Origin: Ignavibacteria bacterium
Lineage (GTDB): Bacteria; Bacteroidota; Ignavibacteria; Kapaibacteriales; Kapaibacteriaceae
Assembly: GCA_947459875.1 (NCBI GenBank)
Contig: CANHFG010000003.1
Location: forward strand, 162 to 64,161
Direction: 5' to 3'
Length of the DNA: 64,000 nt
Shown here piece by piece: positions 14,472 to 58,419 of this stretch (within the stretch, counting starts at the first letter, position 1; each line of letters begins with the position of its first letter). The notes below the pieces were generated by a model. The model was not told the origin of the DNA. It saw only the letters and a program-made list of their open reading frames with translations, and ran no database searches. The position numbers were made by a program, and so were the translations under genes.

Positions 14472-14494
14472 GGTTCTGACCATTAATGTGTTCA

Positions 14495-25104: not shown

Positions 25105-26103
25105 TCAGTCCTGGTATGTGGCAACGTCGCGAATAGCGCGCACACCGGAGCTCCCCTTGTCGCGACGTTCCATCGCCACAAGAGCAGAAGCATAGATCTC
25201 GCGCCAGGTGAGACCGAACTTCACCATCAGCTCTTCCGGATCGCCGGAGCCACCGAAGGAGTCCTTGACACCGACAAACTCGATCGGCACCGGAGCATTC
25301 TTTGCTGTGCATTCCGCAACTGCCCCGCCAAGTCCGGCGTGAACCTGGTGCTCTTCAGCCGTTACGATACAGCCGCATTCACGAGCGGCCTGCGTGACCG
25401 TGGCGAAGTCGAACGGCTTGACTGTGTGCACGTTAACGACGCGGGCAGATATGCCCTTCTTGGCAAGCTCCTTGGCGGCAAGAATGCTCTCCCACACCAG
25501 CGCGCCGTTGGCGATGAGCGCAACATCGGTACCATCCATGAGAACATTGGCCTTGCCAAGCTCGAACGGCGACTCCTCTGTCGTAAACATTGGTACCGGT
25601 GAACGACCGAAACGGATGTAGGCCGGTCCAATCATTTCGCCCATGGCAACGGTGGCCTTGCGAGCTTCGTAGTAATCGGCAGGGACGATCATCGTCATGT
25701 GCGGAAGCGTACGCAGAAACGCGACTTCTTCCAGCACCTGGTGCGTTGCACCATCCGGCCCAACACTGATACCGGCGTGTCCTCCGCCGATCTTGACATT
25801 TGCTTCGTTGTATGCCACCGAAATACGCAGCTGATCGGCGTTGCGCAAAGCACAGAACGCACCATACGAAGCAAAGAATGGGATCTTGCCACTGAGTGCG
25901 AGACCTGCCGCGATCGTTGTTGCGTTCTGTTCGGCGATACCAATTGAGAAGAACCGATCCGGGAACTTCTCTTTGAACAGCGAGGTCATCACCGATCCGG
26001 TGATATCCCCACCAAGTACAACAATATTGCTGTGGCGCTCGCCAAGATCAACGAGTCCGTCACCAAAGCCAAATCGCGTGGGTTTTGATCCGAGAAGGTC
26101 CAT
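25105..26103 (-). CDS. Transketolase, C-terminal (pyrimidine-binding) subunit
   Basis: 332 aa. ...RFFSIGIAEQNATTIAAGLALSGKIPFFASYGAF... is typical of split transketolase subunit B. Confidence 0.9.
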   Translation of the reverse strand: MDLLGSKPTRFGFGDGLVDLGERHSNIVVLGGDITGSVMTSLFKEKFPDRFFSIGIAEQNATTIAAGLALSGKIPFFASYGAFCALRNADQLRISVAYNEANVKIGGGHAGISVGPDGATHQVLEEVAFLRTLPHMTMIVPADYYEARKATVAMGEMIGPAYIRFGRSPVPMFTTEESPFELGKANVLMDGTDVALIANGALVWESILAAKELAKKGISARVVNVHTVKPFDFATVTQAARECGCIVTAEEHQVHAGLGGAVAECTAKNAPVPIEFVGVKDSFGGSGDPEELMVKFGLTWREIYASALVAMERRDKGSSGVRAIRDVATYQD

Positions 26104-26223
26104 CAGGTTTCAGGTTTCAGGTTTGAGGTTTGAGGTGTGGGGTGTGAGGTCACTCGTCACTCTGTCACTACGTAATTCCGTAACTCCGTAATTCCGTAAT
26201 TCCGTAATTCCGTAATTCTCTTC
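26104..26223. repeat. 120-nt mosaic of short tandem repeats that fills the whole spacer between the two transketolase half-genes
   Basis: The plus strand reads (CAGGTTT)x3, GAGGTTT, GAGGTGT, GGGGTGT, GAGGTCACTCGTCACTCTGTCACTA, then (CGTAATTC)x6 with one CGTAACTC. No non-repeat base lies between ATG 26103 and TAA 26224-26226 apart from tcttc. Confidence 0.95.
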
Positions 26224-27123
26224 TTACGGCATCGTCGACATTTCTTCCAGGGCGGCTATCGCTTGGTCTTTGGAAGGGGGCTTACCGTGCCATTCAAACT
26301 TGTCATTCATGAACGAAACGCCGTGGCCCATATAGGTTCGCGCAATGATCGCTGTCGGCTTACCGGTCTTATTGCGCTGGTTCTCAAGGAACCGGTCGAA
26401 TCCGCGCATGAGGTCGGCGTAGTCGTGACCGTCAACGACAATGGTGTCGAAGCCAAAGGATTCGCACTTGGCATCGATCGGATACACGTTCATCACATCA
26501 GGCACGCGGCCGTCAATCTGACAATCGTTATTGTCGATCAGCCAGCAGAAGTTATCCAGCCCGAAATGCGAAGCCGCCATTGCTGCTTCCCAGACCGAAC
26601 CTTCTTGGAGCTCTCCGTCACCGGTGAGCGAGAACACGCGGCGGTCGTTTCTGTCGACCAGCTTGTCACTCATAGCCATGCCGACGGCGATGGAGATGCC
26701 CTGACCAAGTGAACCGGACGATGTTTCTACGCCGGGAAGGTGCATGTCGCGTCCCGGATGGCCCTGCAGACGCGTGTTGTACTTACGCAACGTCTCCTGT
26801 TCTTGCTTAGGGTAGCATCCGGCGTTTGCCAGCGCGGCATACATGACCGGCGCCATGTGTCCAGCCGACAGAACGAATCGGTCGTGCGTTGTATCATCCA
26901 TCCGGGCTGGATCGTACCGCATGTACCCACCAAAGTAGAGAACGGCGAAAATATCGGCCGATCCGAGGGGGCCGCCGCTATGACCGGAGCCGGCGCGCAC
27001 GAGCATTCGCACGATATCGCGGCGGATCTCATTAGCGATCGGTGCAAAATCCTCCGCAGACCGACGTTCATTAGTGAACGTGGTGGTGTTGAAGTCCAGC
27101 GAGGCCTTGGTTTCCTGTGTCAT
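26224..27123 (-). CDS. Transketolase, N-terminal (TPP-binding) subunit
   Basis: 299 aa. It contains ..SGHSGGPLGSADIFAVLYF.. and ..SLTGDGELQEGSVWEAAM.. (GDG-x-QEG TPP motif). Confidence 0.9.
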   Translation of the reverse strand: MTQETKASLDFNTTTFTNERRSAEDFAPIANEIRRDIVRMLVRAGSGHSGGPLGSADIFAVLYFGGYMRYDPARMDDTTHDRFVLSAGHMAPVMYAALANAGCYPKQEQETLRKYNTRLQGHPGRDMHLPGVETSSGSLGQGISIAVGMAMSDKLVDRNDRRVFSLTGDGELQEGSVWEAAMAASHFGLDNFCWLIDNNDCQIDGRVPDVMNVYPIDAKCESFGFDTIVVDGHDYADLMRGFDRFLENQRNKTGKPTAIIARTYMGHGVSFMNDKFEWHGKPPSKDQAIAALEEMSTMP

Positions 27124-27269
27124 GGAAATGAAGGGGTTGGGGGTTCAGAAAAATGCCATCGAAAGTACGGAAACTATGGCATGTAGTTTGCAAACGGAAC
27201 GGCATACACTCGATCTTTGGGCGATAGAAAACGTCACTGCATTGCAATCACGTTCTAAAGGAGCCGATC

Positions 27270-29393
27270 ATGAACCGCTATACTTCTCTGGCGGCTGTCG
27301 CGCTGATAATCATTGCGACCTACCATTTCCCTGCTCATGCCCAGAAGCACGCGGAGATAGTCCAGGCAGATGCAGCGGGAACGGAATTCTGGATCGCTAT
27401 TCCACCGAACGAGATCAATCCGTTTCCGGTCGAGGGACTCGAGATCTACGTTTCCTCCGCATTCAATGCGAGTGTGGAGTTGTTTGATTTCTCCAGCGAC
27501 AGATCTACACGTTTCAATCTCAAGCCGTATGAAGTAAAGACACTGAGCGACCGTAAGGAACTCAACTGGGCAATGGAGATCCGAGATGCGGAGCTCCCCG
27601 TGCGAAAGGCGCTACGACTGACATCCGACAGGCCAATCAGTGTAAATGTCCTGAATTCAAAGGTGACGACCTCCGATGGCTTTCTAGCCATACCGACGCG
27701 CCGCTGGGGCACTGAGTACATCGCCGCCAGCTACTGGGACTTTCGCGAATTCAAACCCTGGCCAGGGGGCTTTATCATCATCGCTAAGCAACCAACGAAC
27801 GTGGACATTCTCCTGCGCGGTGCGGGACGGGATAGTGGGCGCACGACTACCGGACGAAAGATCGGCGAACAGTTCTCGGTGTTCCTCGATGAGGGTGAGG
27901 TGTACATGGTACACGGCGATGGACAGACCCGTGGTGTGTTCGACCTGACCGGCTCATTGATCACCTCTGACCAACCGATCGGCGTGATCGGCTTTCATAT
28001 GCGCACAACGATGCCGAACCTCCTGATGAACGGCAATGGTCGTAATCACCTTTGTGAGATGCTACCACCGACCAATCGCTGGGGCCGCCGATACTCTACG
28101 CTGGAGTTGAATCGAACTCGCAGAAGTGCAGGTCGTGGCGACGTTTTCCGCGTGATCGCAAAAGACGCTAACACACGCTGGAGCTGCAAGTTCTACGACA
28201 AGATCACCGGGAAGCTACTCGGTCAGCGCGGAGGCCTGATCAGCACCGCCGGCGGTTTTGCCGACGAGCAACAGGCATCAGAGCCGACGGCGATCGTCGA
28301 AGGGTTTTCCGTTTGGGAAGCCGACAAACCCTTTCTGCTCATGCAGTACTCGTGCTCGTCGTCGTGGGATGGCGACCAGTTTCTCGATCCGTTCATGATC
28401 TGCGTAACACCGCGCGAAAACTATATCTGGGAGACCACCTTTCAGACACCTACGATGGCCCAGTTCACGGTTCACAACCTGAATCTTATCGTTAATGTCG
28501 ACACCACCGACCCAACCTCGATCGTGGATAATCTCAAGTCGCTTGAGATCGATGGCGTGCCCGTCTGGAACCATCCAGAGGCGGTCAAGCCCCTTCTTCT
28601 GCAGTCGAAGATGCCAAATGGGGAGTACCATGCGGTGATAAAATTCGGTGCGGAAGCGCGTTCACACACTATCTCAAGCAACGGTCTGGTGCGTTTCGGC
28701 GGCTATCTGTATGGGTTCGGTGCGGTCGATGCCTACGGCTGGCCCGTCTCGTCGGCACTGCGAACCAACAGTCCTCGAGACACCAACCGCCCCGTCATCA
28801 GCGGCACCTCCGACAACGGCGATTACATCCTCGAGGCGACGGAACTGCGCAACAGCCCCGATCCGCCGCGGAAAGTGCCGGCGGACGCAGATCAGGTGGA
28901 AAAGGGCATTTTCCGGATCGACTCCGTGCGCGGCAAGGGCAACTTCAACTATCGTCTGGTGTCGCGCGGCGGCCCGTCCTTTCCCGAAGATCTCGCTCTT
29001 AGAAGGCATGCGTACCGCTGGGAAGTGATCGACAAGTCCAAGGATGCTCGGATGGTCTACTACGTTGTTGATCATGCCGGCAACATGACGCTCGACACCT
29101 GCACGTACGTGGCCGTGCCTGTTTCTGTTCAGGGGGCGAACCAGGAACCTAACCCCTGTGATGACAACAGGTTGCTCGTCAATGGCCGGCAGGTCCTGTT
29201 CAATGCAAGCCGATCCCCGATCGGCGGACAACTGATCATCTACGACCTGCGGGGTCAGGTCACGGCCACGGCCGACCTTGCTCGCACCGCATCTACCCCC
29301 ATCTCCGTCGGCCCGCTTGCTCCAGGCATCTATATCGCCTGCTACGATGCCGGGACTAGCAGGTGCAGCACCCGCTTTGTCATAGCCCCCTGA
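27270..29393 (+). CDS. Secreted T9SS cargo protein with an IgGFc-binding-like N-terminal domain (GTEFWIAIPPNE)
   Basis: An AGGAG Shine-Dalgarno precedes ATG 27270, and MNRYTSLAAVALIIIATYHFPAHAQ looks like a signal peptide. The C-terminus is CTD-like (QLIIYDLRGQV...LAPGIYIACYD...TRFVIAP). The first ~600 aa are roughly 70% identical by eye to the next gene. Confidence 0.8.
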   Translation: MNRYTSLAAVALIIIATYHFPAHAQKHAEIVQADAAGTEFWIAIPPNEINPFPVEGLEIYVSSAFNASVELFDFSSDRSTRFNLKPYEVKTLSDRKELNWAMEIRDAELPVRKALRLTSDRPISVNVLNSKVTTSDGFLAIPTRRWGTEYIAASYWDFREFKPWPGGFIIIAKQPTNVDILLRGAGRDSGRTTTGRKIGEQFSVFLDEGEVYMVHGDGQTRGVFDLTGSLITSDQPIGVIGFHMRTTMPNLLMNGNGRNHLCEMLPPTNRWGRRYSTLELNRTRRSAGRGDVFRVIAKDANTRWSCKFYDKITGKLLGQRGGLISTAGGFADEQQASEPTAIVEGFSVWEADKPFLLMQYSCSSSWDGDQFLDPFMICVTPRENYIWETTFQTPTMAQFTVHNLNLIVNVDTTDPTSIVDNLKSLEIDGVPVWNHPEAVKPLLLQSKMPNGEYHAVIKFGAEARSHTISSNGLVRFGGYLYGFGAVDAYGWPVSSALRTNSPRDTNRPVISGTSDNGDYILEATELRNSPDPPRKVPADADQVEKGIFRIDSVRGKGNFNYRLVSRGGPSFPEDLALRRHAYRWEVIDKSKDARMVYYVVDHAGNMTLDTCTYVAVPVSVQGANQEPNPCDDNRLLVNGRQVLFNASRSPIGGQLIIYDLRGQVTATADLARTASTPISVGPLAPGIYIACYDAGTSRCSTRFVIAP

Positions 29394-29394
29394 C

Positions 29395-29463
29395 GCAAAG
29401 TTGGCAAGGGGCAGATTTCGGGGAAAATCTGAGACCATTTTCGGAACCCGAGAGCCAACTTTT
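29395..29463 (+). terminator. Nested hairpin plus T-run between the two paralogous cargo genes (possible terminator or attenuator)
   Basis: The outer arms CAAAGTTGGC (29395-29404) and GCCAACTTT (29453-29461) are complementary and are followed by TTTTTG. The inner hairpin is CAGATTT-cgggga-AAATCTG (29411-29430). Confidence 0.35.
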
Positions 29464-29598
29464 TGTTTATTATGGTGAATGTCGAGGAAAGTGTGTTTTA
29501 ATCCGGCCGAAAAGCGCTATGTGAACAAGCGCATTGCGGCTCGGGGAAACGTCGCTACCTCGGCACCAACGTGGACATTTTTTCCGTTTGGAGGCTTC

Positions 29599-32500
29599 AT
29601 GTTCAAGCGCTTCACCATGCGTTCCGTGTTCGTTTTGTTTGTCTTACTGGGTTCGACGCTGCACCTGGCAGCTCAGCGCAAAGCTCCCACTGTCGACAAG
29701 CTGCTAAGTAGTGGCGGCCAAGGCACGGAGTTCTGGGTTGCCATCCCGCCGAATGAGATCCTGCCGTTCCCTGTTGAGGGACTTGAGATCTATGTGGCCT
29801 CAGCGTTCGACGCGAACGTCGAGCTCTTCGACTTCGCAGGCGACCGCTCAACCCGCTTCAAGCTCAAGCCTTACGAGGTGAAGACGCTGAGTGACCGCAA
29901 GGAGCTCAACTGGTCGATGGAGATCCGCGATGCCGAAATGCCTGTGCGGAAGGCTCTGCGGCTGACATCTGACAAGCCCATCTCGGTCTATGTCATTAAT
30001 TCCAAGGTAACGACCACTGACGGCTACATGGCGATCCCCACCAATGGCTGGGGACAGGACTACATCTCCGTCAGCTACTGGGACTTCCGTGAAGTCAAGC
30101 CATGGCCAGGGGGCTTTATGATCATCGCGAAGGAGCCCACAACAGTGGATATTCTCCTTCGTGGGCAGGGCAAGAATGATGCAACCACCTCGAACGGACG
30201 TCGGATCGGCGAGCGCATCTCGGTGTTCCTGGATGAGGGCGAAGTCTACATGGTTCATGGTGATGGCCAGACACGCGCTGCATTTGACCTTACCGGTTCG
30301 CTGATTCGCGCCGACAAACCTGTAGGCTTCATCAGCTTTCACATGCGCACGACCATGCCCAACCTGCTCATTAACGGCAACGGGCGAAACCACCTTTGTG
30401 AGATGCTACCCCCCATTACGGCATGGGGTAAGCGATATTCAACGGTCGAACTAAAGCGTGCGCGGCGTCTTGAAGGTCGCGGCGACGTCTTCAAGGTCGT
30501 TGCCAAGGATGATCAAACGCGCTGGACAATGAAGTACTATGACAAGACCAACGGCAAACTCCTCGGACAGAATGGCGGCCTGCTTGCAAAGGCCGGCGAT
30601 TTCGCCGACATCACGCAGGCTACTCAGCCCACGGCGATCACGGAGGGTTTCTCTGTGTGGGAAGCCAACAAGCCGATCTTCCTGATGCAGTACTCATGTT
30701 CATCAAGCTGGGATGGTGACCAGATCCTTGACCCGTTCATGTTCAACGTGACGCCGGAAGAGCAGTTCATTACGAGCACGATCTTCCAGTCGCCTACGAT
30801 GGCGCAGTTCACAAAGCACTATCTGAATCTGATCGTCAAGACAGACACATCGAACAAGAAAAAAATGGAGGAAAATCTCAAGTCACTCGAGATCGATGGC
30901 ATCCCCGTGTGGAGCGATCCGCGTGCTGAGAAGCCTTCGCTGCTCTTTACCCGCATGCCCAATGGGCTCTTCTGGGCCTCGATCGAGTTCGGCACTGACG
31001 CACGAGCCCACCGTATTTCCGGCAATGGCCTGGTAAGCTTCGGAGGGTACATCTATGGCTTCGGAGCTGTGGATGCGTACGGATGGCCTGCTGCCGCCGG
31101 CTTCCGCCCAACAACGTCCGTGGACACGCTTGCTCCGGTCATTAAGGGCGACTCCCTCTGTGGCGACTACAAGTTTGAGGCCACTGAGCTTCGTAACATA
31201 CCGGACCCGCCTCGTGAAGTTCCTATTGATACCGATCAGGTCGAGACGGGCATCGCCCTGATCGATACCGTTCCTGGGCAGAACAGCTACAACTATCGTC
31301 TGGAGTTGATCACCGATCAAATTTTCCCGCAGGCCCCTTCCTTCAAGCGGTTCAAGTATGAATGGCAGGTCATCGACAAGAGCAAGGATGCCCGGGCGAT
31401 CTATTATGTGCGTGATTTCGCTGATAACGTCACCCTTGACACGTGCTACTACTTTGCTGACAGACTTGTCTTCACACCAGACCCGCTGTTGTTCGGCAAG
31501 ATTCGACTTGGTAGCAAGAAGACACTGCCACTTACCATAAGGAACAACTCCGATGTCGAGGTGACGCTGACGGCGTCGAAAATGCTCGCCGGCACCTACT
31601 TCAAAATGGTTTCGGGTCAGATCCCTGATGGCAAGGAAGTAAAGATCCCTGCTCGCGGAAGCTATACCATCGATATCGAGTATTCCGGCACCCGTGAGAC
31701 GTCGGACGTCACCAAGGACTGGGATAAGGACACCATCCAGATCAATACCAGCTGCGGTCTGTTCAAGCATGGTATGACCGGCGTAGCCGCCATCCCGCGC
31801 ATTAAGGTCCGCGACTTTGACGCGGGCACACGCGGCCTGAATGAGAAGTTCTGCGGTCCGCTGCTGATCGAGAATCCTGGTTCCGACACACTGGTCATTA
31901 CGGCGATCACTGGTTACGACAACTCGGCATTCTCTCTTTCTGCCGGATACACTCCTGCTCTGCCGATCTCGATCCCACCAAGGGGTCGTGTTGAGCTGAA
32001 GGATGTCTGTTTTGTCAGCGATAAGATCATCGACGAGACCAAGGACGTCACCTTTGCCAACAACGGAGACGGTCCCGATTCGGTATCGAAGTGGACCGGC
32101 AACACGCAGACCCCAGGCCCTGGCATCACAGGTTATGACTGGCTGCTTCGCCGCGTGGGTACGCGTCATCCGTGGACGGTTAAGGTCTACAACACAGGCA
32201 ATCAGGAGATCATCCTGAACGACGTCAACTTCTCAACAGGCGGGAAGTACTTCCCTGCCGGGTCGGACGAGAGCAACTTCGTGTTCAAGATCGGCAACCT
32301 CATCAAGGGTGGATCGCCGGTGACCACAGCTACACTGAAGGGCGACTCGGTTGACGTTGAGGTATTCTTCCGTCCGGGCGGCGAGCAGGCCTACACCGTT
32401 GACATCACACCCGTGTGGGCTACATCACAGGATCCACGTTCTGCACGTCTCGCCGGCGAAGGCATCATTCCAAAGATCAATTCGCAGCCTATCTCACTTA

Positions 32501-33951
32501 CGTGCGCCGAAACGCCAGAGGGCGATGAGGTGCGCCGTGACGTTGTCCTGACAAACGGAGGTACCATGCCTCTGACGGTAACGGACATTCGTCTCGCGGC
32601 GGGCGCTCCTGCAGGCTACGCCCTTATCACGACGCCGACCTTCCCAGTAACGGTTGCTGCCAACGGCGGGGTTTATCCTGTAACGATTGCCTACACACGT
32701 CCGTTCGGCTTTGGCAATGCCACTTCTGTCGACCTGGAAGTTGCTCATGATGCAACGCCTGGAACGGGTGTCGATGCGACAACGCTCGTCTCGGTCGGAC
32801 CTCACACACAACGGATGTCGGTTGCCTCGTGCTCGTCACCGGACATTGCTACGATCGATCTCGATTTTGGTCGTAACCGCGCCAACTGCGACGATCCAAC
32901 GCGTGAGTTTACGATCAGCAATCCAAGCGGTTCACTCAAGCCCCTTGAGATCAAGGAGATTCGTGCCGCCGGACCGGATGCAGCCGCATTCACGATCACA
33001 CAGATTCGTGATGGCGCGGGCACTGTCATCTCTCTGCCGATCATTCTGACGGCCGGTCAGACGGCAACCGTCAGCGTCAAGTTCACGCCAACAGAACCAA
33101 ACGCCGCGCCATGGCAGAACCGCGTGTATTCGGCCCAGTATGAGATCGATGGATATGCACAAGGCGAAACCAAGCCATTCAAGTCGGTGACTTCCAAGCT
33201 CACAGGCGTTGGCTTTGTCACCCCGGTATCGATGGCTCTCGGCAACGATCTCGGTCCGACAGAAACGAAGAACCCCGGCAATGCAGTAGCATTCCGTGTT
33301 GCGGCAAATTCGGCCGACTGGAATTCTGCCGACCTTCGTTCGTTCACAGCTGATGTGATCTATGACCCCGCCACAATTTCGTTCACTGCGGGCTCGCTTC
33401 GTGCCGAAGCATCAGCCCCGGGCTGGACGATCGCCGGACCGACGATCACGACGATCTCTGCCGACCAGGCACGCATGACGTTCACCGCATCAGGTCCAGC
33501 GGCCATCCGTGCCAATGGTGATGTGTTCTCGTTCAGCGCTACCCTGCTGCTGTCAGATAAGGTCAAGGCCCTGCAGAACCTTGAGATCAACCTCGGTCGT
33601 CCGTGCTTGATCCCGTCGACGACCGGCGACTCCACGGGAATCTTCAACTGCGCTCTGACTCGCCGGGTCATCAATGTCTCGGGAGCACGCACGAAGATGG
33701 CTCCTGTTTCTCCGAACCCAGTTCGATCTGGCACTGCCACCGTCGAGTTCGGCGTCGGTATCTCAGCGCCGGTCACGATCCAGGTGATCAACGCCCAGGG
33801 TCAGGTTGTCCGCACACTGGTGAACGGTCAACTGCAATGGGGCGAGTACGACATGAGCTTCGATACGCAGGGTCTCTCGGCCGGTGCGTACTTCATCAGA
33901 ATGCAGACCGTCGAATTTGATCGCACGCAGCCGCTGATGATCCAGGACTAA
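29599..33951 (+). CDS. Large (~1450 aa) T9SS cargo protein: IgGFc-binding-like N-terminal region, multiple Ig/PapD-like (ASPM-SPD2-Hydin-type) beta-sandwich repeats, then a CTD
   Basis: A GGAGG Shine-Dalgarno precedes ATG 29599, and MFKRFTMRSVFVLFVLLGSTLHLAAQ looks like a signal peptide. It is paralogous to 27270..29393 up to ~aa 600. It then carries repeats such as LLFGKIRLGSKKTLPLTIRNNSDVEVTL. The C-terminus PNPVRSGTATVEF...IQVINAQGQVV...LSAGAYFIRMQ is a type-A CTD. Confidence 0.85.
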   Translation: MFKRFTMRSVFVLFVLLGSTLHLAAQRKAPTVDKLLSSGGQGTEFWVAIPPNEILPFPVEGLEIYVASAFDANVELFDFAGDRSTRFKLKPYEVKTLSDRKELNWSMEIRDAEMPVRKALRLTSDKPISVYVINSKVTTTDGYMAIPTNGWGQDYISVSYWDFREVKPWPGGFMIIAKEPTTVDILLRGQGKNDATTSNGRRIGERISVFLDEGEVYMVHGDGQTRAAFDLTGSLIRADKPVGFISFHMRTTMPNLLINGNGRNHLCEMLPPITAWGKRYSTVELKRARRLEGRGDVFKVVAKDDQTRWTMKYYDKTNGKLLGQNGGLLAKAGDFADITQATQPTAITEGFSVWEANKPIFLMQYSCSSSWDGDQILDPFMFNVTPEEQFITSTIFQSPTMAQFTKHYLNLIVKTDTSNKKKMEENLKSLEIDGIPVWSDPRAEKPSLLFTRMPNGLFWASIEFGTDARAHRISGNGLVSFGGYIYGFGAVDAYGWPAAAGFRPTTSVDTLAPVIKGDSLCGDYKFEATELRNIPDPPREVPIDTDQVETGIALIDTVPGQNSYNYRLELITDQIFPQAPSFKRFKYEWQVIDKSKDARAIYYVRDFADNVTLDTCYYFADRLVFTPDPLLFGKIRLGSKKTLPLTIRNNSDVEVTLTASKMLAGTYFKMVSGQIPDGKEVKIPARGSYTIDIEYSGTRETSDVTKDWDKDTIQINTSCGLFKHGMTGVAAIPRIKVRDFDAGTRGLNEKFCGPLLIENPGSDTLVITAITGYDNSAFSLSAGYTPALPISIPPRGRVELKDVCFVSDKIIDETKDVTFANNGDGPDSVSKWTGNTQTPGPGITGYDWLLRRVGTRHPWTVKVYNTGNQEIILNDVNFSTGGKYFPAGSDESNFVFKIGNLIKGGSPVTTATLKGDSVDVEVFFRPGGEQAYTVDITPVWATSQDPRSARLAGEGIIPKINSQPISLTCAETPEGDEVRRDVVLTNGGTMPLTVTDIRLAAGAPAGYALITTPTFPVTVAANGGVYPVTIAYTRPFGFGNATSVDLEVAHDATPGTGVDATTLVSVGPHTQRMSVASCSSPDIATIDLDFGRNRANCDDPTREFTISNPSGSLKPLEIKEIRAAGPDAAAFTITQIRDGAGTVISLPIILTAGQTATVSVKFTPTEPNAAPWQNRVYSAQYEIDGYAQGETKPFKSVTSKLTGVGFVTPVSMALGNDLGPTETKNPGNAVAFRVAANSADWNSADLRSFTADVIYDPATISFTAGSLRAEASAPGWTIAGPTITTISADQARMTFTASGPAAIRANGDVFSFSATLLLSDKVKALQNLEINLGRPCLIPSTTGDSTGIFNCALTRRVINVSGARTKMAPVSPNPVRSGTATVEFGVGISAPVTIQVINAQGQVVRTLVNGQLQWGEYDMSFDTQGLSAGAYFIRMQTVEFDRTQPLMIQD

Positions 33952-33980
33952 ACGGCAGATCCGACATACCATGTCCCAAA

Positions 33981-34007
33981 GGGCGGCCCATCCGGGTCGC
34001 CCTTTTT
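33981..34007 (+). terminator. Rho-independent terminator after the 1450-aa gene
   Basis: GGGCGGCCC-atcc-GGGTCGCCC forms a 9-bp stem with one G-T pair and is followed by TTTTT. Confidence 0.6.
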
Positions 34008-34083
34008 CGTTCCGCCCCCTCCCAAGTGCATACATGGCACGGTAATTGGTTGTTTCCCCGCAGACCACTATCTTGCAACGTTC

Positions 34084-34605
34084 ATGCAAAGTCCATCTCC
34101 ACATATCTCCCTGCGCAACCTCGCCCTCATGCTCGCACTTGTCGTGCTGGTGGCGATCGTGCCTGCTTTCGCCGAGAATGCCAGGAGCACCAGTAGTGCA
34201 AAGAATGCGACAAAGCAGACGGCCAGTTCGTTTTCCCCGGTCACACGCGCTGTGGCAAGCGGTGTTAAGGCTCTGACTGTTCGGAAGCTTACGACCGATG
34301 AGCGCGCACAGGTCAAGTCCAACACTGGCCGCGACTCGGCCGTCGCTCCGCCACGCATCGTCTCTACACGCGTCAGTTCCGAAGTGTTCACAACACGGGT
34401 TGAATTGGCAGGTGACGAGTCCCTCGTTGAGATCTCAATCTTTAACATGCTTGGCAAGCGTGTAATGGAAGTCTACAAAGGGGCTTCATCACGCGGCGTG
34501 CATGAACACACGCAGTCGATCTCGGAACTTCCAGACGGCGTCTACATGTGCGTCATGCAGGGGGCCAACTTCCGGAAGGCTGAGAAGTTCTTCTTTAACC
34601 GCTGA
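34084..34605 (+). CDS. Small CTD-only protein: signal/anchor, low-complexity linker, T9SS-CTD-like tail
   Basis: The N-terminal hydrophobic segment is LALMLALVVLVAIVPAFAENA, followed by a Ser/Thr/Ala-rich linker. The tail reads EISIFNMLGKRVMEVYKG...ELPDGVYMCVMQGANFRKAEKFFFNR. Confidence 0.6.
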   Translation: MQSPSPHISLRNLALMLALVVLVAIVPAFAENARSTSSAKNATKQTASSFSPVTRAVASGVKALTVRKLTTDERAQVKSNTGRDSAVAPPRIVSTRVSSEVFTTRVELAGDESLVEISIFNMLGKRVMEVYKGASSRGVHEHTQSISELPDGVYMCVMQGANFRKAEKFFFNR

Positions 34606-34629
34606 CATTGCACCATCAGAAAATCATAC

Positions 34630-34658
34630 GAGCCGCCTTTGGTGGCTCGTTTCGTTTT
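34630..34658 (+). terminator. Rho-independent terminator
   Basis: GAGCCGCC-ttt-GGTGGCTC is followed by GTTTCGTTTT. The Shine-Dalgarno GAGGAG and ATG 34670 come directly after it. Confidence 0.55.
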
Positions 34659-34669
34659 GAGGAGACCCC

Positions 34670-35800
34670 ATGAAGTTCGCAACCAAGGCCATTCATATTG
34701 GTCAAGAACCTGAGCGCCTTACCGGCGCTGTGACCGTGCCGCTTTTTCAGACATCGACCTACGCACAGCATGAGATCGGTCACCATACCGGATTCGAATA
34801 CGCCCGGACGCAAAACCCGACTCGCTTTGCATGGGAGGACAACCTGGCGGCTATGGAAGGTGGCGTCGATGCATTCGCCTTTGGAAGCGGTCTGGCAGCC
34901 ATCGACGCGGTCATGCGTCTGCTTTCCTCCGGCGACCATGTGATCATGGCAGAGGACATGTATGGAGGCACGTTCCGCCTGGCAGAACGCATCCTGCGCC
35001 GCTTCGGCCTGGACTTCTCGTACGTTGACATGCGCGATCCGGCGAATGTTGCGAATGCCATTCGCCCGAGCACCAAAATGATCTACACAGAGACGCCGAC
35101 CAATCCGATGATGACCATCACGGACATCGCGGCGATCTCCGCCATCGCCAGCCAGGGCGGCTGCCACATGGTGGTCGACAACACCTTTGCCACCCCTTAC
35201 GCCCAGCGTCCGCTGGAGATGGGGGCTTCGATCGTGGTTCACTCTGCAACCAAGTACCTGGGAGGACATAGCGATCTCGTTAGCGGCATCGTTACGACCA
35301 ACAGTGAGTCTATCGCCGAGCAGCTCGGTTTCATCCAGAATGCCGCCGGCGCTGTCCCCGGCCCCTTTGATTGCTGGCTGCTGCTGCGCTCATCCAAGAC
35401 TCTTTCCGTGCGAATGGATCGTCACAGTTCAAATGCTCAGACCATCGCCGAGTTCTGTGCATCTCACCCAGCGATCCTCGCGACACATTACCCCGGACTG
35501 AAGAGTCATCCCCAGCACGAACTCGCCAAGCGCCAGATGTCTGTCTTTGGTGGCATGATCTCGATCGAACTCGGCTCGCGTGAACGCGCCGTCGCGGTCA
35601 CGAACAAGCTCAAACTCTTCACGCTTGCCGAATCACTCGGTGGCGTCGAATCCCTCGTATGCCACCCTGTGAGCATGACGCACGGATCGATCCCAAAAGA
35701 ACAACGCGAGCGACTCGGCGTCACCGAGGGCCTGATTCGCCTTTCCTGCGGTATCGAAGATGTCGAGGACCTCATGGCGGATATTGAGGCTGCGCTTTAG
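34670..35800 (+). CDS. Cys/Met-metabolism PLP-dependent enzyme (cystathionine gamma-synthase/gamma-lyase/beta-lyase family)
   Basis: MKFATKAIHIGQEP....PLFQTSTY at the start and SATKYLGGHSDL (PLP-lysine motif) fit the family. Substrate specificity cannot be decided from the sequence alone. Confidence 0.85.
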   Translation: MKFATKAIHIGQEPERLTGAVTVPLFQTSTYAQHEIGHHTGFEYARTQNPTRFAWEDNLAAMEGGVDAFAFGSGLAAIDAVMRLLSSGDHVIMAEDMYGGTFRLAERILRRFGLDFSYVDMRDPANVANAIRPSTKMIYTETPTNPMMTITDIAAISAIASQGGCHMVVDNTFATPYAQRPLEMGASIVVHSATKYLGGHSDLVSGIVTTNSESIAEQLGFIQNAAGAVPGPFDCWLLLRSSKTLSVRMDRHSSNAQTIAEFCASHPAILATHYPGLKSHPQHELAKRQMSVFGGMISIELGSRERAVAVTNKLKLFTLAESLGGVESLVCHPVSMTHGSIPKEQRERLGVTEGLIRLSCGIEDVEDLMADIEAAL

Positions 35801-35817
35801 GACATCTGCGCCGCGTA

Positions 35818-35887
35818 GGGTGCCTTCGGCACGAGGAGGAACCTCAAACCTCACACCCCACACCCCACACCTCAAACCTCACACCCG
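35818..35887 (+). repeat. Head sequence GGGTGCCTTCGGCACGAG followed by seven heptamers (GAACCTC AAACCTC ACACCCC ACACCCC ACACCTC AAACCTC ACACCCG)
   Basis: Read directly from the sequence. The heptamers span 35839-35887. They are the reverse-complement families of those at 26125-26152. Confidence 0.9.
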
Positions 35888-35941
35888 CTCGAAGCGCCGA
35901 GCGTCGTAGTTTTGTGGCCCACGAACTTCGGAGTCCCGTCG

Positions 35942-37612
35942 ATGAATCTCGCTGATATTCGCGCTGCCCATCAAGCTACTCTCGATGCTGCCATCAAGGC
36001 CAATGCCGAGCGGACGTTTCATGCCCATTGGCCGGAAGCCCCAAGTGGGAAGATCTACGGCGAGACAGCAAACGACGAAGCGTTAGCACGTTTTCAGTCT
36101 CAGCTGAACAACCGTTTCGAACGCCTTGGTGATTCCGAAACATGGATGGGCGAGGAGATCTCTCCATACGGTTTCTCGCTTGGCATTACATATCCTGCCC
36201 TTGATGTCGAGACGCTCGTCTCGCGAGCCAGTGCAGCGCAGACGGCGTGGCAGTCCCTTACTCCGTTGGATAGGGCTGCGATCCTTGTCGAGGCTCTTGA
36301 ACGTGGAGCAAAGTCATTCTTCGAGATCGGCTATGCAACGCAGCACACCACCGGACAGGGATTCGTGATGGCCTTTCAGGCCTCGGGTCCGCATGCGTTC
36401 GATCGTGCGCTCGAAGCCACAGCGCTTGGCCTTGCTGCTCAATCCTCGTTTACTCCGGGGGTGACGTGGACAAAGCCGATGGGTAAGATCAGCGTCAGCA
36501 TCGAAAAGTCTTATCGCATCGTGCCGCGCGGCATCAATCTTGTTATCGGCTGTTCGACGTTTCCGGTGTGGAACACTGTTCCCGGGATGTTTGCCGGACT
36601 TGTCACGGGCAACAGTGTTATCGTGAAGCCCCATTCCGGTGCCGTCTATCCGATCGCGATCGTCATCGCGGCACTGCGCGATGTTCTTATTGGGCTTGGG
36701 ATGGACCCCGGCATTATCCAGATGGCTGTTGATACAGCTGCTGAGCCCCTTACACTTGACCTCGTCAAGCATCCATCGGTCGGCATCATCGATTACACCG
36801 GCGGCCCGACCTTTGGCGCCGTCGTCGAGAAGGTAGCTGCCGAGCATCGCAAGGTGGTCTTCACAGAAAAGGCGGGCGTCAACTGCGTCATCCTCGACTC
36901 GACGGATGACCTTGACAAGGCCATGGACAATCTTGCCTTCTCGCTGACGCTGTACTCGGGTCAGATGTGCACAGCCCCGCAGAACGTCTTTATATCCAAG
37001 GATGGCATGCAGGTAGGGGGCGAGCACGTTTCCGTAGATGCCGTTGCTGCAAAGCTCCGCGAAAAGATCGATGCACTGGTCTTCAATGAGAAGGCCGGTC
37101 CGGGCACGCTCGGTGCCGTGCAGAATCCTATCACCGCAGCCCGCGTTGCCGAAGCTACCGCGCTCGGCCTTGAGGTTGTTCGCAGCAGTGAAGCCATCGC
37201 GCAACCCGGCTTTGACGGTTCACGTTCGATGTCGCCCCTTGTGTTGAAGACAGACACCAAGCATGCCGACATTTATACAAAGGAGTGGTTCGGGCCGATC
37301 TCCTTCATCGTCGTGACTGACTCTTTCGAGGACTCTCTTAACGAGGTCGTCAGCAGCATTCATGAGCACGGCGCACTGAGCAGCCTTGTCTACACCACGA
37401 ATGCCCACCGTATGCAGATCGCCGAAGATGCAATTGTCGCGGTCGGCGCACCGGTGGCCTTCAACTTCAACAGCTTTGTCTGGGTAAACCAGTCGGCCGC
37501 TTTCAGCGACTTCCACGGCACAGGCTGCAACCCCGCCGGTAACGCCACTTTCGCCGACTGGCAGTTTGTTACGAACCGGTACAATGTGGTGGGCGTGCGC
37601 AAGCAGGCGTAA
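35942..37612 (+). CDS. Aldehyde dehydrogenase family protein, PaaN-like (ring-opening aldehyde dehydrogenase of phenylacetate catabolism)
   Basis: ~556 aa from ATG 35942. The N-terminus ..ERTFHAHWPEAPSGKIYGE.. and the overall length recall PaaN, and YSGQMCTAPQNVF contains the catalytic-Cys region. The family-level call is solid; the PaaN assignment is tentative. Confidence 0.65.
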   Translation: MNLADIRAAHQATLDAAIKANAERTFHAHWPEAPSGKIYGETANDEALARFQSQLNNRFERLGDSETWMGEEISPYGFSLGITYPALDVETLVSRASAAQTAWQSLTPLDRAAILVEALERGAKSFFEIGYATQHTTGQGFVMAFQASGPHAFDRALEATALGLAAQSSFTPGVTWTKPMGKISVSIEKSYRIVPRGINLVIGCSTFPVWNTVPGMFAGLVTGNSVIVKPHSGAVYPIAIVIAALRDVLIGLGMDPGIIQMAVDTAAEPLTLDLVKHPSVGIIDYTGGPTFGAVVEKVAAEHRKVVFTEKAGVNCVILDSTDDLDKAMDNLAFSLTLYSGQMCTAPQNVFISKDGMQVGGEHVSVDAVAAKLREKIDALVFNEKAGPGTLGAVQNPITAARVAEATALGLEVVRSSEAIAQPGFDGSRSMSPLVLKTDTKHADIYTKEWFGPISFIVVTDSFEDSLNEVVSSIHEHGALSSLVYTTNAHRMQIAEDAIVAVGAPVAFNFNSFVWVNQSAAFSDFHGTGCNPAGNATFADWQFVTNRYNVVGVRKQA

Positions 37613-37618
37613 GGAAGA

Positions 37619-37670
37619 GAATTACGGAATTACGGAATTACGGAAGTACGGAATTACGGAATTACGGAAC
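37619..37670 (+). repeat. (GAATTACG)x6.5 octamer array, with one GAAGTACG variant
   Basis: Read directly from the sequence. It starts 6 nt after the TAA at 37610-37612. It is the same unit, in the same sense orientation, as the array at 26171-26218. Confidence 0.95.
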
Positions 37671-37690
37671 GACCGAGTCACTTGTCGTGG

Positions 37691-37710
37691 GGTCGCAGCA
37701 TGCTGCGACC
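37691..37710. terminator. Perfect 20-nt palindrome GGTCGCAGCATGCTGCGACC between convergent genes (candidate bidirectional terminator stem)
   Basis: The sequence is perfectly self-complementary. It lies between a + gene ending at 37612 and a - gene ending at 37725. There is no clean U-run, so the terminator role is uncertain. Confidence 0.35.
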
Positions 37711-37724
37711 TTACCGGTCACTCG

Positions 37725-38879
37725 TCATTCCGTCATGCTGTGATTGCCACCGAATCGGTAGCTAACACTGAGATTGAATAAGATGTCAGCGAAAGCGGCA
37801 TCACCGATCACCTCGACACCTCGGATTTGAGTACGGAGCTTGTCAATGTGGCTCTGCGTGCGATTACGGTAGGCGGCGATCGGCGTGCTGAGGAAAACGG
37901 AAAGTGCAGCCGTGGAGTAACCGATACCAGGTTCAACGCTTACAGCATAGCCGGGTCGGCGGAATCCGTCACTACCGCCGATCAGGTCGGAGGAAGGCAC
38001 ACCCTCAGCGCGAGCGCCAATGTATGCTGTCCATCCGTTGAACATTCCGTACATCACTCCCAGACGTACACCGAACTGATCGGCACTCGAGTACTCCGAG
38101 CTGTCAGCAGTGCCTGCCGGATTGGCAGTGCGCAGTCGAACACCATTCGTGTTGGTTAGATTCGACATGTAGAAGACGTTACTCATAAGAACAAAGTCGG
38201 TTGCCAGCGTATGAATGCCCTGAGCATCGAGGGTGAGTCCAAAGCCACCGTCGCCGAGCTGGATCGATTGATCAACGAAACCCGCCACAGTCTGATCTCT
38301 CTGCGGTCCCTGATTGAAGAAATCATCCACAACGTCATACTTGCCCGTGGGAAGCTTCACACCAAGGGCTACCGAGTAATTGGACTCCGAGGTTGATGGA
38401 TCAAAGAGCCAGTAGCCAACAGAGAGCCGCACGTCACCCAGACCTGCCGACGAGGTCATTCGCCTGTCGCCAGTCCATGTGCCGATAAGAGCTCCCGTGC
38501 TGTCGAACCGCGGGTTTCCCCCATGCTCATAGAGCGATGTGCGGTCGTTGTAGTTGAGTGGCACCACCGCATTGACGAAGATCCTGTCCGTCAATCCATA
38601 ACTCAATGCCAGATCGATCGAACCGGCGTTGTTGATGACCTCCGTCCCCTGCTCGACGCGGAACGATTCTTCATGATCACCGCGGAAGTGGCGGAAAGAG
38701 CGGAAAAACCGCGCACCCGTTACGACGTTGAACTCACCCTCTCTGAGATTGAAGGTGTTGCCCGTATTCGTTCCGCACATGGTGCCGCCACGTACAGCCA
38801 CGCAGCCCTGAGACCGCAGCTCTGCCGAAGCAAGGGCCAGAATTGAGACAATGCAGATGAAGACGTAGCGAGTTGCCAT
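37725..38879 (-). CDS. Outer-membrane beta-barrel protein (transporter/MetA-phenol-pathway-like family, tentative)
   Basis: ATG 38879 gives MATRYVFICIVSILALASAELRSQ (signal peptide). The sequence shows an alternating Gly/aromatic beta-strand pattern and ends ...LFNLSVSYRF GGNHSMTE. The last codons and the stop lie in GTCA-type repeat units. Confidence 0.6.
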   Translation of the reverse strand: MATRYVFICIVSILALASAELRSQGCVAVRGGTMCGTNTGNTFNLREGEFNVVTGARFFRSFRHFRGDHEESFRVEQGTEVINNAGSIDLALSYGLTDRIFVNAVVPLNYNDRTSLYEHGGNPRFDSTGALIGTWTGDRRMTSSAGLGDVRLSVGYWLFDPSTSESNYSVALGVKLPTGKYDVVDDFFNQGPQRDQTVAGFVDQSIQLGDGGFGLTLDAQGIHTLATDFVLMSNVFYMSNLTNTNGVRLRTANPAGTADSSEYSSADQFGVRLGVMYGMFNGWTAYIGARAEGVPSSDLIGGSDGFRRPGYAVSVEPGIGYSTAALSVFLSTPIAAYRNRTQSHIDKLRTQIRGVEVIGDAAFADILFNLSVSYRFGGNHSMTE

Positions 38880-38989
38880 GCAAGTACCCCGTCGAAACAG
38901 TAGTGATTGACGGGGCGCAACATAGAGGCATGCAGTGCCAGCCTGCAAGAGCAAGAAACCTATGTTGCTTAATTTTCGACGCGCAAATT

Positions 38990-39052
38990 CAGGTTTCAGG
39001 TTTCAGGTTTCAGGTTTCAGGTTTCAGGTTTCTACTCGTGCCGAAGCCGCCC
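38990..39052 (-). repeat. (AAACCTG)x6 heptamer array (sense = minus strand) preceded by the head GGGCGGCTTCGGCACGAGTAG
   Basis: The plus strand reads (CAGGTTT)x6 at 38990-39031, then CTACTCGTGCCGAAGCCGCCC up to the stop codon at 39053-39055. Confidence 0.95.
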
Positions 39053-40078
39053 TCAAAGCCCGATCACCCACTGAACAACGGGGATCGGAAGGGGCGACCA
39101 ATCAGAGTTGTTCTCAAGATTGAGAAGGTTCCCCTTGTAGCCAGCAAAGCCAAACTGCCAGTAGGAGCCAGAACCGTACTCCCAGCGAATGGCAGGGATG
39201 ATGAAGATGTTGGAGTAGGTCGTGTACGTGCGCGAGAAACTCTGAGATGGATTGTAGTAGTCGTAATAGTCCGCTCGCCTCCAGCGTCCATCTGGGAGTA
39301 TAACTGAGCCAGAGGATGAGATCATAAACGCGTCAAGGATCAGGCGAATGTTGCGGGCGAGCTTCATAGAAACTCCCAGAGCCAGATAAGCGCGGGGCGA
39401 GGTCACTTGGCTGGTTTCGGGACGCTCAGACATATCCGGTCTTGAATACGTCTCCACCGCTAGGGTGGTTATCCCAAAGCCACCCGTGAGGGAGAAGCTC
39501 GTCGATCCCGTCATCATCGACAGCGTCAGCGTCGGCGCTGCCAGGAAGTTTCGGTCTGCAAGGCTTCCGCCCCATCCCACAATGCCCCCTGCACCGAGCC
39601 AGAGATTTTCGCCGAGTGGCATGCGGTACATTGCCGTGGCAACAATGGGTGCGCTGAACCATGAGGCAAGCAGTCCAACACTGAATCGCTCGGTCGGAAA
39701 CGCCTCCAGTGCCATACCAGCAAGATTGAACTGCAACGTCGATGTTCCCTTTGGCATCGGCAGAGCGCTTGACGTGAGCACGTAGGTGGCCGTCTGCACT
39801 GCGCCGTCCGCACTTTGATCCGACGTTGGTTGGTCAGCGATGGTGGAGATCGTTCGGACGAGATGCTTTGGCAACACCAGACGAGTCTGATCCGTGAGTA
39901 CAACAGTCAGCTCACGGGCATTCATGCTGATGATGCGACCGCTAATGATCGAACCGTCATGACGCTCAACATCAAAAATCCTGACGGTGTCCGTCCACTC
40001 AATCTGCTGGGCGATGCTCGGCATGAACGCGCCCATGAGGAAGATCACAATAAGGAGTCCGGTACGCATGCTGGTCAC
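39053..40078 (-). CDS. Hypothetical secreted/outer-membrane protein, paralog of 40075..40974
   Basis: GTG 40078 overlaps the upstream stop as GTGA; the alternative start ATG 40069 gives MRTGLLIVIFLMGAFMPSIAQQ (signal peptide). The N-terminal ~60-aa module ends in ..VLPKHLVRTIS. The rest is rich in Gly and aromatics and looks barrel-like. Confidence 0.65.
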   Translation of the reverse strand: MTSMRTGLLIVIFLMGAFMPSIAQQIEWTDTVRIFDVERHDGSIISGRIISMNARELTVVLTDQTRLVLPKHLVRTISTIADQPTSDQSADGAVQTATYVLTSSALPMPKGTSTLQFNLAGMALEAFPTERFSVGLLASWFSAPIVATAMYRMPLGENLWLGAGGIVGWGGSLADRNFLAAPTLTLSMMTGSTSFSLTGGFGITTLAVETYSRPDMSERPETSQVTSPRAYLALGVSMKLARNIRLILDAFMISSSGSVILPDGRWRRADYYDYYNPSQSFSRTYTTYSNIFIIPAIRWEYGSGSYWQFGFAGYKGNLLNLENNSDWSPLPIPVVQWVIGL

Positions 40079-57741: not shown

Positions 57742-57846
57742 GTACCCAGTACCCAGTACCCAGTACCCAGTACCTAGTACCCAGTACCCAGTACCCAGTA
57801 CCCAGTACCCAGTACCCAGTACCTAGTACCCAGTACCCAGTACTCT
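57742..57846. repeat. ~14.5 tandem heptamers GTACCCA (sense strand TGGGTAC), with two GTACCTA variants
   Basis: I counted unit by unit. Units 5 (57770-57776) and 12 (57819-57825) carry the C-to-T variant. The array overlaps the 3' end of the gmhA-like ORF. Confidence 0.95.
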
Positions 57847-58419
57847 GGCCTCGATCATCTCACACCACACATGTCCGATCAGAATATGGCACTCCTGAAT
57901 GCGGGCCGTGACAGCAGACGGGACGATTACTGAGTGATTGCAGAGCTTTGCCAAAACGCCGCCGGTTCCCCCGAGCAGGCCGATGGTGCGAACACCTCGT
58001 TGGCGGGCTTCTTCCACAGCCATGACAACATTCCGGGAGGTACCGCTCGTGGAGATTGCAATCAGTACGTCACCCGATGTGCCAAAAGCTTCTACCTGAC
58101 GGCTGAAGACCCGGTCGAACCCGTAGTCATTGCCGCCTGCCGTGAGTATGCTGCTGTCGGTTGAAAGGGCAAGCGCTTTGATAGCACGGCGATTGACATC
58201 GCTCTTGAGCCGGACCACCAGCTCAGCAGCGATATGCTGACTATCGGCCGCACTGCCGCCGTTACCGCAGAGCATGATCAGGCCGTTGCTCATAGCGCAG
58301 TCGGCCAAAAGCTGACCGCACGTATGGATTGCATCCAAGTGCTGCTCCAACAAGCGCGTCTTGGTATCGATGGACTCGCGTAGAATGCCCTCGATCATGT
58401 CGTTAGTCATTGCTGCCAT
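57823..58419 (-). CDS. gmhA: SIS-domain phosphoheptose isomerase
   Basis: ...LIMLCGNGGSAADSQHIAAELV... and ..DVLIAISTSGTSRNV.. are GmhA/DiaA-type motifs. The last 6 codons (VLGTGY) and the TAG stop are encoded by the heptamer array. Confidence 0.75.
   Translation of the reverse strand: MAAMTNDMIEGILRESIDTKTRLLEQHLDAIHTCGQLLADCAMSNGLIMLCGNGGSAADSQHIAAELVVRLKSDVNRRAIKALALSTDSSILTAGGNDYGFDRVFSRQVEAFGTSGDVLIAISTSGTSRNVVMAVEEARQRGVRTIGLLGGTGGVLAKLCNHSVIVPSAVTARIQECHILIGHVWCEMIEARVLGTGY

Follow-up and report, generated by a model that had tools for sequence, protein, structure and literature searches.

Octamer arrays abutting the stop codons of paaN-like and transketolase genes in an Ignavibacteria bacterium as probable members of a lineage-wide population of intergenic tandem repeats

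Two genes in a 64,000-nt stretch of DNA from an Ignavibacteria bacterium (contig CANHFG010000003.1, positions 162 to 64,161; hereafter the window) are each followed, directly at the stop codon, by an array of the octamer GAATTACG with a near-identical junction. One encodes a PaaN-like aldehyde dehydrogenase (paaN) and the other the N-terminal subunit of a transketolase (tktN). Such a junction raises the question of whether the octamer belongs to an element that seeks out stop codons, or to one that brings the stop codon with it. The best explanation is a different one: the tract is probably (at about 0.68) a member of a population of hypermutable 7/8-nt intergenic tandem arrays found throughout the lineage, long simple-sequence repeats (SSRs) similar to short tandemly repeated repetitive (STRR) sequences.

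The gene paaN (35942–37612, + strand; Aldedh/LuxC by Pfam) starts with the ATG at 35942, as called in public assemblies, and stops with the TAA at 37610–37612. From position 37607 the + strand reads GCG TAA GGAAGA (GAATTACG)3 GAAGTACG (GAATTACG)2 GAA. The purine junction GGAAGA (37613–37618, + strand) is conserved in the window and in the related loci L262, L098 and L048, and leads into an array (37619–37669, + strand) that Tandem Repeats Finder (TRF) scored as 6.4 copies of GAATTACG, 95% matched, with the single variant unit GAAGTACG. Ten overlapping matches to the GAATTACG dimer were present in the window, against none in 100 dinucleotide shuffles. The array gives way to degenerate units (GAACGACC GAGTCAC TTGTCGTG; 37670–37690, + strand), which form the left arm of an extended inverted repeat (inverted-repeat pairs I4, I11 and I15), then to the perfect 20-nt palindrome GGTCGCAGCATGCTGCGACC (37691–37710, no strand), which is unique in the window and resembles a repetitive extragenic palindrome (REP), and finally to a right arm of reversed GTCAC-type units (37711–37745; − strand: GACGGAAT GACGAGTGACC). 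The right arm holds the stop codon (37725–37727) of a convergent outer-membrane (OM) barrel open reading frame (ORF; 37725–38954, − strand), which has a weak Phenol_MetA_deg match, is annotated with 384 aa in public assemblies and ends ATG ACG GAA TGA within these units. This architecture was recovered in four independent assemblies.

The second octamer array follows tktN (26224–27123, − strand; Transketolase_N by Pfam; stop at 26224–26226). Read on the − strand from 26229, the sequence is CCG TAA GAAGA (GAATTACG)4 GAGTTACG GAATTACG. TRF placed 6.0 copies at 26171–26218, again 95% matched and with one variant unit, GAGTTACG; with the GAAGA ahead of it, the tract occupies 26171–26223 (− strand). 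The rest of the spacer between tktN and tktC (26103–26170, − strand) consists of the heptamer arrays GAGTGAC, CTCACAC/CTCAAAC and CTGAAAC, and the last unit overlaps the tktC ATG (26101–26103). This spacer was recovered in at least eight assemblies. Units of the GAGTCAC/GTCACTC type are found in both spacers, at 37678–37737 and at 26149–26169. The original prediction had described nearly identical junctions after the two stops, about six units with one point variant in each array, a perfect palindrome, shared GTCAC-type units and a barrel ORF ending inside them, and all of these sequence facts were borne out.

That the array might itself supply the stop codon had been offered as one reading of the shared junction. 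In about 30 orthologues, which range from 99% down to about 64% identity, the PaaN-like protein has the C-terminus ...NRYNVVGVRKQA*, with mostly unrelated sequence downstream. Likewise, TktN from about 30 orthologues ends AALEE(M/L)xxMP* and is followed either by a repeat-free spacer of 0–45 nt or by more than 100 nt of arrays. Truncation or extension of either gene by the array is ruled out by these invariant C-termini. The stop codon itself drifts between TAA, TAG and TGA, even among strains with the same array, which rules it out as part of the element; one metatranscriptome contig from a related strain has TAG at 37612 and one heptamer fewer at 35848 (a 7-nt indel). Since the C-termini are invariant and the identity of the stop drifts, the shared string CGTAAG amounts to two conserved last codons, the stop and one further base. 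These alignments show the stops of paaN and tktN to be ancestral and to lie outside the element. At the orthologous site after paaN, other lineages carry different arrays, namely TAGTTAC, the 13-mer GTGACCTATWCAG, GAATTGC, CCAAGTG and AAGGGYGA, the last with the stop in register with the unit. The idea of a supplied stop holds for the OM-barrel ORF only. Eleven relatives end this protein GGxHSM-TAA, and in the window, L098 and L048 it ends HSM-ACG-GAA-TGA; the window lineage has thus gained two codons (Thr-Glu) and a new stop inside a unit of the GACGGAAT/GACGAGTGAC type.

The arrays differ between strains and close species. Contigs whose TktN is 100% identical to that of the window have one of two spacers: 120 nt with 6 octamers, or 195 nt with 11 octamers, most of them GAAGTACG, plus five additional CCCACAC units; the TAA-GAAGA and CTG-ATG edges do not differ between the two forms. 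The closest other species (L181, 95% TktN identity) has no octamer block and retains the GAGTGAC, CTCACAC and CTGAAAC arrays. The array after paaN is also hypervariable, with 6 units in the window, 4 units and a duplicated palindrome in L262, 5 units of GAGTTACR in L098, and 8 alternating GAAGTACK/GAATTACG units in L048, the unit variants being homogenised. Mismatches averaged 0.79 in the first unit and 0.82 in the last, and interior units were cleaner. Directional growth, in which one edge would be older, is not supported by these values; equally degenerate edges around a homogeneous interior are the signature of slippage and unequal exchange rather than of growth from one end.

Variation within the unit is itself uneven. 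Among 375 units G1, A2, A6 and C7 hardly vary, and positions 3, 4, 5 and 8 do; the numbers of arrays with an interior variant at positions 1 to 8 were 2, 3, 16, 6, 7, 3, 0 and 14. The unit family can be written GARKKAC(N), to which the heptamer GAGTGAC corresponds once the eighth base is dropped.

A second proposal had been that the element targets stop-codon contexts. The junction is more than a one-off: GAAGA and an array lie 0–1 nt after the stop, or overlap the stop by two bases, at no fewer than five independent ORFs of 300–600 codons (paaN, tktN and genes ending '...SMGY*', '...VMME*' and '...RIGY*'), and also at one tRNA end. Other left junctions of GAATTACG arrays are GGGA, GGAGGAC and GAC, and the 12 nt 5' of 41 non-redundant arrays are 74% purine, compared with 56% on the 3' side. 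When the arrays were read as GAATTACG, a gene lay within 12 nt of the 5' end in 20 of 33 (median gap 7 nt) and within 12 nt of the 3' end in 4 of 32 (median 115 nt). In a second count the 5' end was anchored in 21 of 32 arrays and the 3' end in 5 of 32 (Fisher p = 9e-5). Arrays of other units, oriented by G>C, behaved similarly (9/28 5'-anchored, 1/28 3'-anchored; p = 0.012). Of the 21 anchored arrays, 12 touched a same-strand stop and 9 an opposite-strand start, so that targeting of stop codons is not the best reading. The arrays instead point away from the gene they touch, and two arrays in one spacer consequently lie tail to tail; the earlier view of the paaN spacer as two tail-to-tail tracts, one from each flanking gene, fits this general rule. 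In co-directional spacers GAATTACG was found in the sense orientation at 6 sites and antisense at 8. A fixed sense orientation, as expected of a signal in RNA, was accordingly rejected, and an orientation that is not fixed relative to transcription argues against a single RNA-level role.

Arrays of this kind are widespread in the lineage. The flanking proteins assign the window to the Kapaibacteria lineage. The closest public records are metagenome-assembled genomes (MAGs) labelled Candidatus Kapaibacterium or Ignavibacteria, and near-identical sequence to the window is present in freshwater and lake metagenomes. An array-period census covered 1.97 Mb of related loci fetched by two protein queries, a sample unbiased for repeats, at a threshold of at least 3.5 copies. 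The period was 7 in 31 arrays and 8 in 8 arrays, and periods of 6, 9 and 12 were almost absent. The arrays were confined to sequence between ORFs, some 'coding' calls being ORFs that enter an array by a few codons. A database scan for (GAATTACG)3 returned 97 loci, about half of them in dozens of contigs from roughly ten Kapaibacteria-type MAGs, where the octamer adjoins other heptamer arrays and REP-like hairpins. Copy numbers of GAATTACG arrays span 3 to 36, and more than 100 contigs per lake metagenome match the octamer array. Logan contigs end in arrays, where short-read assemblers break. The octamer dimer was not found in any paper of the library that was searched.

Most of the remaining (GAATTACG)3 loci belong to another element, GAATTACGGTGACAG..., from Alphaproteobacteria. 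Many Alphaproteobacteria and some Gammaproteobacteria have GTGACAG(T)(G/T)CAC/TTTACT... directly after 2–4 GAATTACG units, a distinct dispersed element that shares the octamer and a GTGAC motif (L001, L014, L017, L021, L025, L026, L028, L034, L039, L041, L046, L047, L055, L057, L058, L069, L070, L074, L077, L082, L090 and L094).

To account for these observations, we infer a mechanism of slippage and recombination. GARKKAC(N) units would expand, contract and homogenise through slipped-strand mispairing and unequal exchange, and arrays would spread from spacer to spacer through ectopic recombination or template switching. They would survive only between genes, where a period not divisible by three does no harm, and selection at coding boundaries would pin the array edge flush to a stop or to an opposite-strand start. 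Near-identical junctions at two unrelated genes would follow from this pinning. The spacer after paaN, in which an octamer array, a REP-like palindrome and inverted degenerate units are combined, is a mosaic like the bacterial interspersed mosaic elements (BIMEs), situated at an inversion breakpoint.

Several points weigh against this explanation. No accepted mechanism explains why arrays are anchored by the 5' end or why GAAGA recurs at their edge, and boundary selection alone does not account for only one end of the array being pinned. Position-specific conservation of the unit is not predicted by pure neutral drift and hints at protein recognition or a mutational hotspot. An AACCTGA array at the tktC ATG is kept across several species, which could mean function. 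The gene calls of the census came from a longest-ORF heuristic. As for a putative function of the hairpin in the paaN spacer, the U-tract of a terminator is absent, and the RNA evidence consists of metatranscriptome contigs, which may contain DNA.

In a rival reading the arrays are functional cis-elements, multivalent sites for a sequence-specific DNA- or RNA-binding protein that acts on the flanking genes at termination, re-initiation or translation. The conserved GA...AC positions and the anchoring to gene boundaries speak for such a role, and in at least six related genomes an AACCTGA array continues into the ATG of tktC. There is also an argued precedent, S1-, Csp- or CsrA-like proteins having been proposed as binders of TAACTGA repeats (MacGregor 2015, PMC4679880). 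This role nevertheless appears unlikely. With 6 sense and 8 antisense arrays, any RNA-level role would vary from site to site; strains whose flanking proteins are identical have copy numbers about two-fold apart; and orthologous spacers in close relatives have no arrays or have unrelated units. Folding of the co-directional array spacers gave z = 0 to 0.5 relative to shuffles, so these spacers are neither more nor less structured than expected, and both a structured RNA and an unusually unstructured linker were rejected.

It is also conceivable, at similarly long odds, that an active polar process generates or recognises the repeats from coding boundaries, in place of passive slippage: a unit-binding protein might seed or protect arrays, or templates might be switched where transcription and replication meet. 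Gene-end anchoring in three unrelated phyla with unrelated units, the GA...AC conservation and the recurrent GAAGA edge are the reasons for considering it. Were it true, tail-to-tail arrays would also be a substrate for local inversions such as that of paaN described below.

The recurrent edge could further be read as the end of a mobile element, small and non-autonomous, that consists of GAAGA-(GAATTACG)n and optionally the palindrome and is inserted site-specifically beside stops, for example by a single-stranded DNA transposase of the REP-associated tyrosine transposase (RAYT) or IS200/IS605 type. We consider this improbable. The stop-GAAGA-array junction does recur at five or more independent ORFs, an octamer block is present in the tkt spacer of the window and not in that of L181, the array and palindrome occur as a module after an unrelated gene in L050, and REP-like palindromes are abundant in relatives. 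The same array end, however, abuts opposite-strand starts (9/21) and a tRNA end, left junctions other than GAAGA are many, and the number and sequence of units change in situ among strains. In respect of ends of the type found in miniature inverted-repeat transposable elements, the GAAGA left edge recurs, and in the aligned strains neither a fixed right edge nor a target-site duplication was seen, nor were terminal inverted repeats. No transposase gene lies near any examined copy, and no RAYT (Y1 transposase) was seen among the examined ORFs of the window, the analysis having covered fragments of the genome and no search aimed at RAYT having been made. An assembly artefact, or chance likeness of the two junctions, is hardly credible: short-read assemblers do break at arrays, and a chimeric join at an array is suspected in at least one public contig (L266/L270), but the arrays of about 50 nt are shorter than reads, the same junctions appear in independent assemblies from several studies, and no shuffle reproduces the repeat.

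The 112-nt spacer between paaN and the OM-barrel ORF (37613–37724) is predicted to fold into a single long, imperfect hairpin (37664–37737) with the palindrome at its centre (z = −2.8 and −3.1 for the two strands). In the predicted fold the last octamers and degenerate units form one arm and pair with the GTCAC-type units, including the OM-barrel stop, as the other; the degenerate units of the left arm pair with 37711–37737. No T-run follows the hairpin on either strand, a terminator consensus scan found no match in the spacer, and no Rfam match at E ≤ 1 was obtained in 25900–39300. A canonical intrinsic terminator and a known Rfam family were both rejected on these grounds, the hairpin being present with neither a U-tract nor a covariance-model match. 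A plausible role for the hairpin is to cap the two convergent transcripts at their 3' ends. The palindrome is not confined to this site. Exact copies of GGTCGCAGCATGCTGCGACC follow other genes in L050 and L072, and word depth over the palindrome in lake metagenomes is about 25 times that of its flanks. In L050 a module of AGTGACCGGTARGGTCGCAGCATGCTGCGACCCCACGAC and (CGTAATTC)n recurs after an unrelated gene, to which it supplies the last codons and stop.

This spacer has a recent origin. In at least ten relatives (compared at L100–L108, L111, L113 and L118) the gene order is g39053(+) OMB(+) paaN(+) CGL(−) g34084(−), OMB being the OM-barrel gene. In the window, L098, L099, L048 and L262, paaN alone is inverted, together with a conserved leader, and the breakpoints of the inversion are the array-bearing spacers 35801–35941 and 37613–37724. 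The 112-nt convergent spacer is therefore young, since one of the two breakpoints of this single-gene inversion lies there. As a cause of the flip, an inverted repeat common to both spacers was considered, and none that was convincing was found between 35801–35941 and 37613–37724; the repeats could thus have caused the inversion or colonised its scars. With arrays and palindromes at both breakpoints of a one-gene inversion, such repeats are linked to local rearrangement.

The paaN leader, CGTAGTTTTGTGGCCCACGAAC(TACGG) at 35903–35930, precedes the gene in every relative, even at about 63% protein identity, and was carried along in the inversion. Within the leader lie a CGTAGTT/GAACTACG inverted repeat and the TTG 'start' at 35912; it has no Rfam match and may be a cis-regulatory hairpin or operator.

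The kind of repeat is already known in bacteria; the lineage, the units and the 8-nt period are new here. The STRR heptamers of heterocystous cyanobacteria were reportedly described by Mazel et al. in 1990, and long SSRs with 5–11-nt units in prokaryotes are said to have been surveyed by Mrazek et al. in 2007. Sequences of this class are tandem heptamers distributed genome-wide in non-coding DNA and are hypervariable enough for strain fingerprinting; long SSRs have at least 3–4 highly identical units placed head to tail. The present arrays agree with the class in every feature compared, having 6.4 and 6.0 copies at 95%, a dispersed and non-coding distribution, a period not divisible by 3, and variation between relatives. 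They differ from STRR sequences in lineage and units, and in forming mosaics with REP-like palindromes. In enterobacteria, REP sequences and BIMEs are dispersed imperfect palindromes of about 20–40 nt at gene 3' ends and in convergent spacers, arranged in mosaics, and may stabilise mRNA 3' ends. The palindrome at 37691–37710 is likewise a dispersed extragenic palindrome 3' of genes, as its copies in L050 and L072 and its duplication in L262 illustrate, although its mosaic partners are tandem 7/8-mers and not alternating REP orientations. A phase-variation (contingency) SSR, which would lie within an ORF or between promoter elements and switch expression through its unit number, was rejected, as the octamer arrays follow ancestral stops and the flanking genes belong to core metabolism.

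The closest parallel for the polarity is provided by the heptamers GGGAATC and GGGGA(C/T)T of Xanthomonas and Nostoc, which are dispersed and over-represented in non-coding DNA (Rehm et al. 2015, PMC4692102). They lie close to the ORF on their 5' side whatever its orientation, some overlapping the stop, a rule for which no explanation was given (PMC4692102). The arrays described here are similar in being tandem arrays of the 7-nt class whose length and sequence vary at the same intergenic site between close relatives, and they obey the polarity rule (21/32 against 5/32). They differ in the prominence of an 8-nt period, in the absence of a preference for four units, in their phylum (Kapaibacteria, of the Fibrobacteres-Chlorobi-Bacteroidetes (FCB) group), and in their units, GAATTACG, GAGTGAC, AACCTGA, CCTCACA and TGGGTAC, which are without G-tracts. 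Within the GAATTACG unit no two G stand side by side, apart from the junctional GG, and the unit does not qualify as a G-quadruplex motif. Formation of G-quadruplexes cannot therefore be the rationale of the arrays here, and the rule that the 5' end abuts an ORF holds also for non-G-quadruplex octamers and heptamers in an uncultured lineage of the FCB group. Polarity in such repeats argues against a G-quadruplex rationale and for a general mechanism.

Direct repeats of TAACTGA in Beggiatoaceae, Cyanobacteria and some Bacteroidetes (MacGregor 2015, PMC4679880) offer another comparison. They are intergenic and often lie directly upstream of starts that have no Shine-Dalgarno site (PMC4679880). 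Shared features are several heptamer arrays per spacer, syntenic relatives with short repeat-free spacers, and AACCTGA/TAACCTG arrays abutting the tktC ATG. In contrast to TAACTGA, GAATTACG arrays occur mostly at stops or opposite-strand starts, their orientation is not fixed, and the units are different. The (AACCTGA)n array that runs into the tktC ATG (...AACCTGATGG; 26101–26136 in the window, and in L180–L184 and L263–L267) has no visible Shine-Dalgarno site and resembles the layout of TAACTGA repeats before starts (MacGregor 2015, PMC4679880).

In practical terms, the arrays break short-read assemblies, yield chimeric contigs and can move annotated gene ends by a few codons. For lake Kapaibacteria they also provide strain markers that change very fast. 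Two contigs, L266 and L270, have an identical tktN followed past the arrays by unrelated genes, and are probably chimeric joins made by the assembler inside the repeats. Several MAGs labelled 'Chitinophaga pinensis', 'Patescibacteria group' or 'uncultured Hyphomicrobiales' carry syntenic Kapaibacteria-type genes at 65–99% identity, and their labels look wrong (L098/L181/L004/L036 in CALRYC01, L118/L180 in JBILLF01, L109/L191 in JBIICY01, and L122/L123/L125/L130).

The window contains five array-bearing spacers, and all of its heptamer arrays lie between ORFs. Apart from the two spacers with octamers, these are the second breakpoint spacer of the paaN inversion, with (AACCTCA/CACACCC)x6.4 at 35840–35885 (+ strand); the spacer between g39053 and the OM-barrel gene, with (AACCTGA)x6.4 at 38988–39032 (− strand); and a third with (TGGGTAC)x14.6 at 57742–57847 (− strand), into which the upstream ORF reads. 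This ORF (198 aa; 57823–58419, − strand) enters the array by about 20 nt and has its stop at the variant unit TAGGTAC. The same small module, (G)CTTCGGCACGAG-(G/T)AG, precedes the AACCTCA and AACCTGA arrays, at 35818–35839 and 39033–39052, and one copy of the CTTCGGCACGAG module holds a GTGCC-TTCG-GCAC tetraloop-type hairpin. Two further families of dispersed hairpins lie next to arrays in related genomes, GTAGGGGCGAGCCTACGTGCTCGCCC (L005, L018, L036, L053, L063, L065 and L093) and GTCATTCCCGCGAAAGCGGGAATC, with the inverted-repeat arms ATTCCCGC/GCGGGAAT (L022, L061, L177, L180, L182 and L184). Elsewhere in the window, a giant ORF of 4127 aa at 2112–14495 (− strand) has internal periodic repeats of 201 nt and 18 nt by TRF and presumably encodes a repetitive surface protein.

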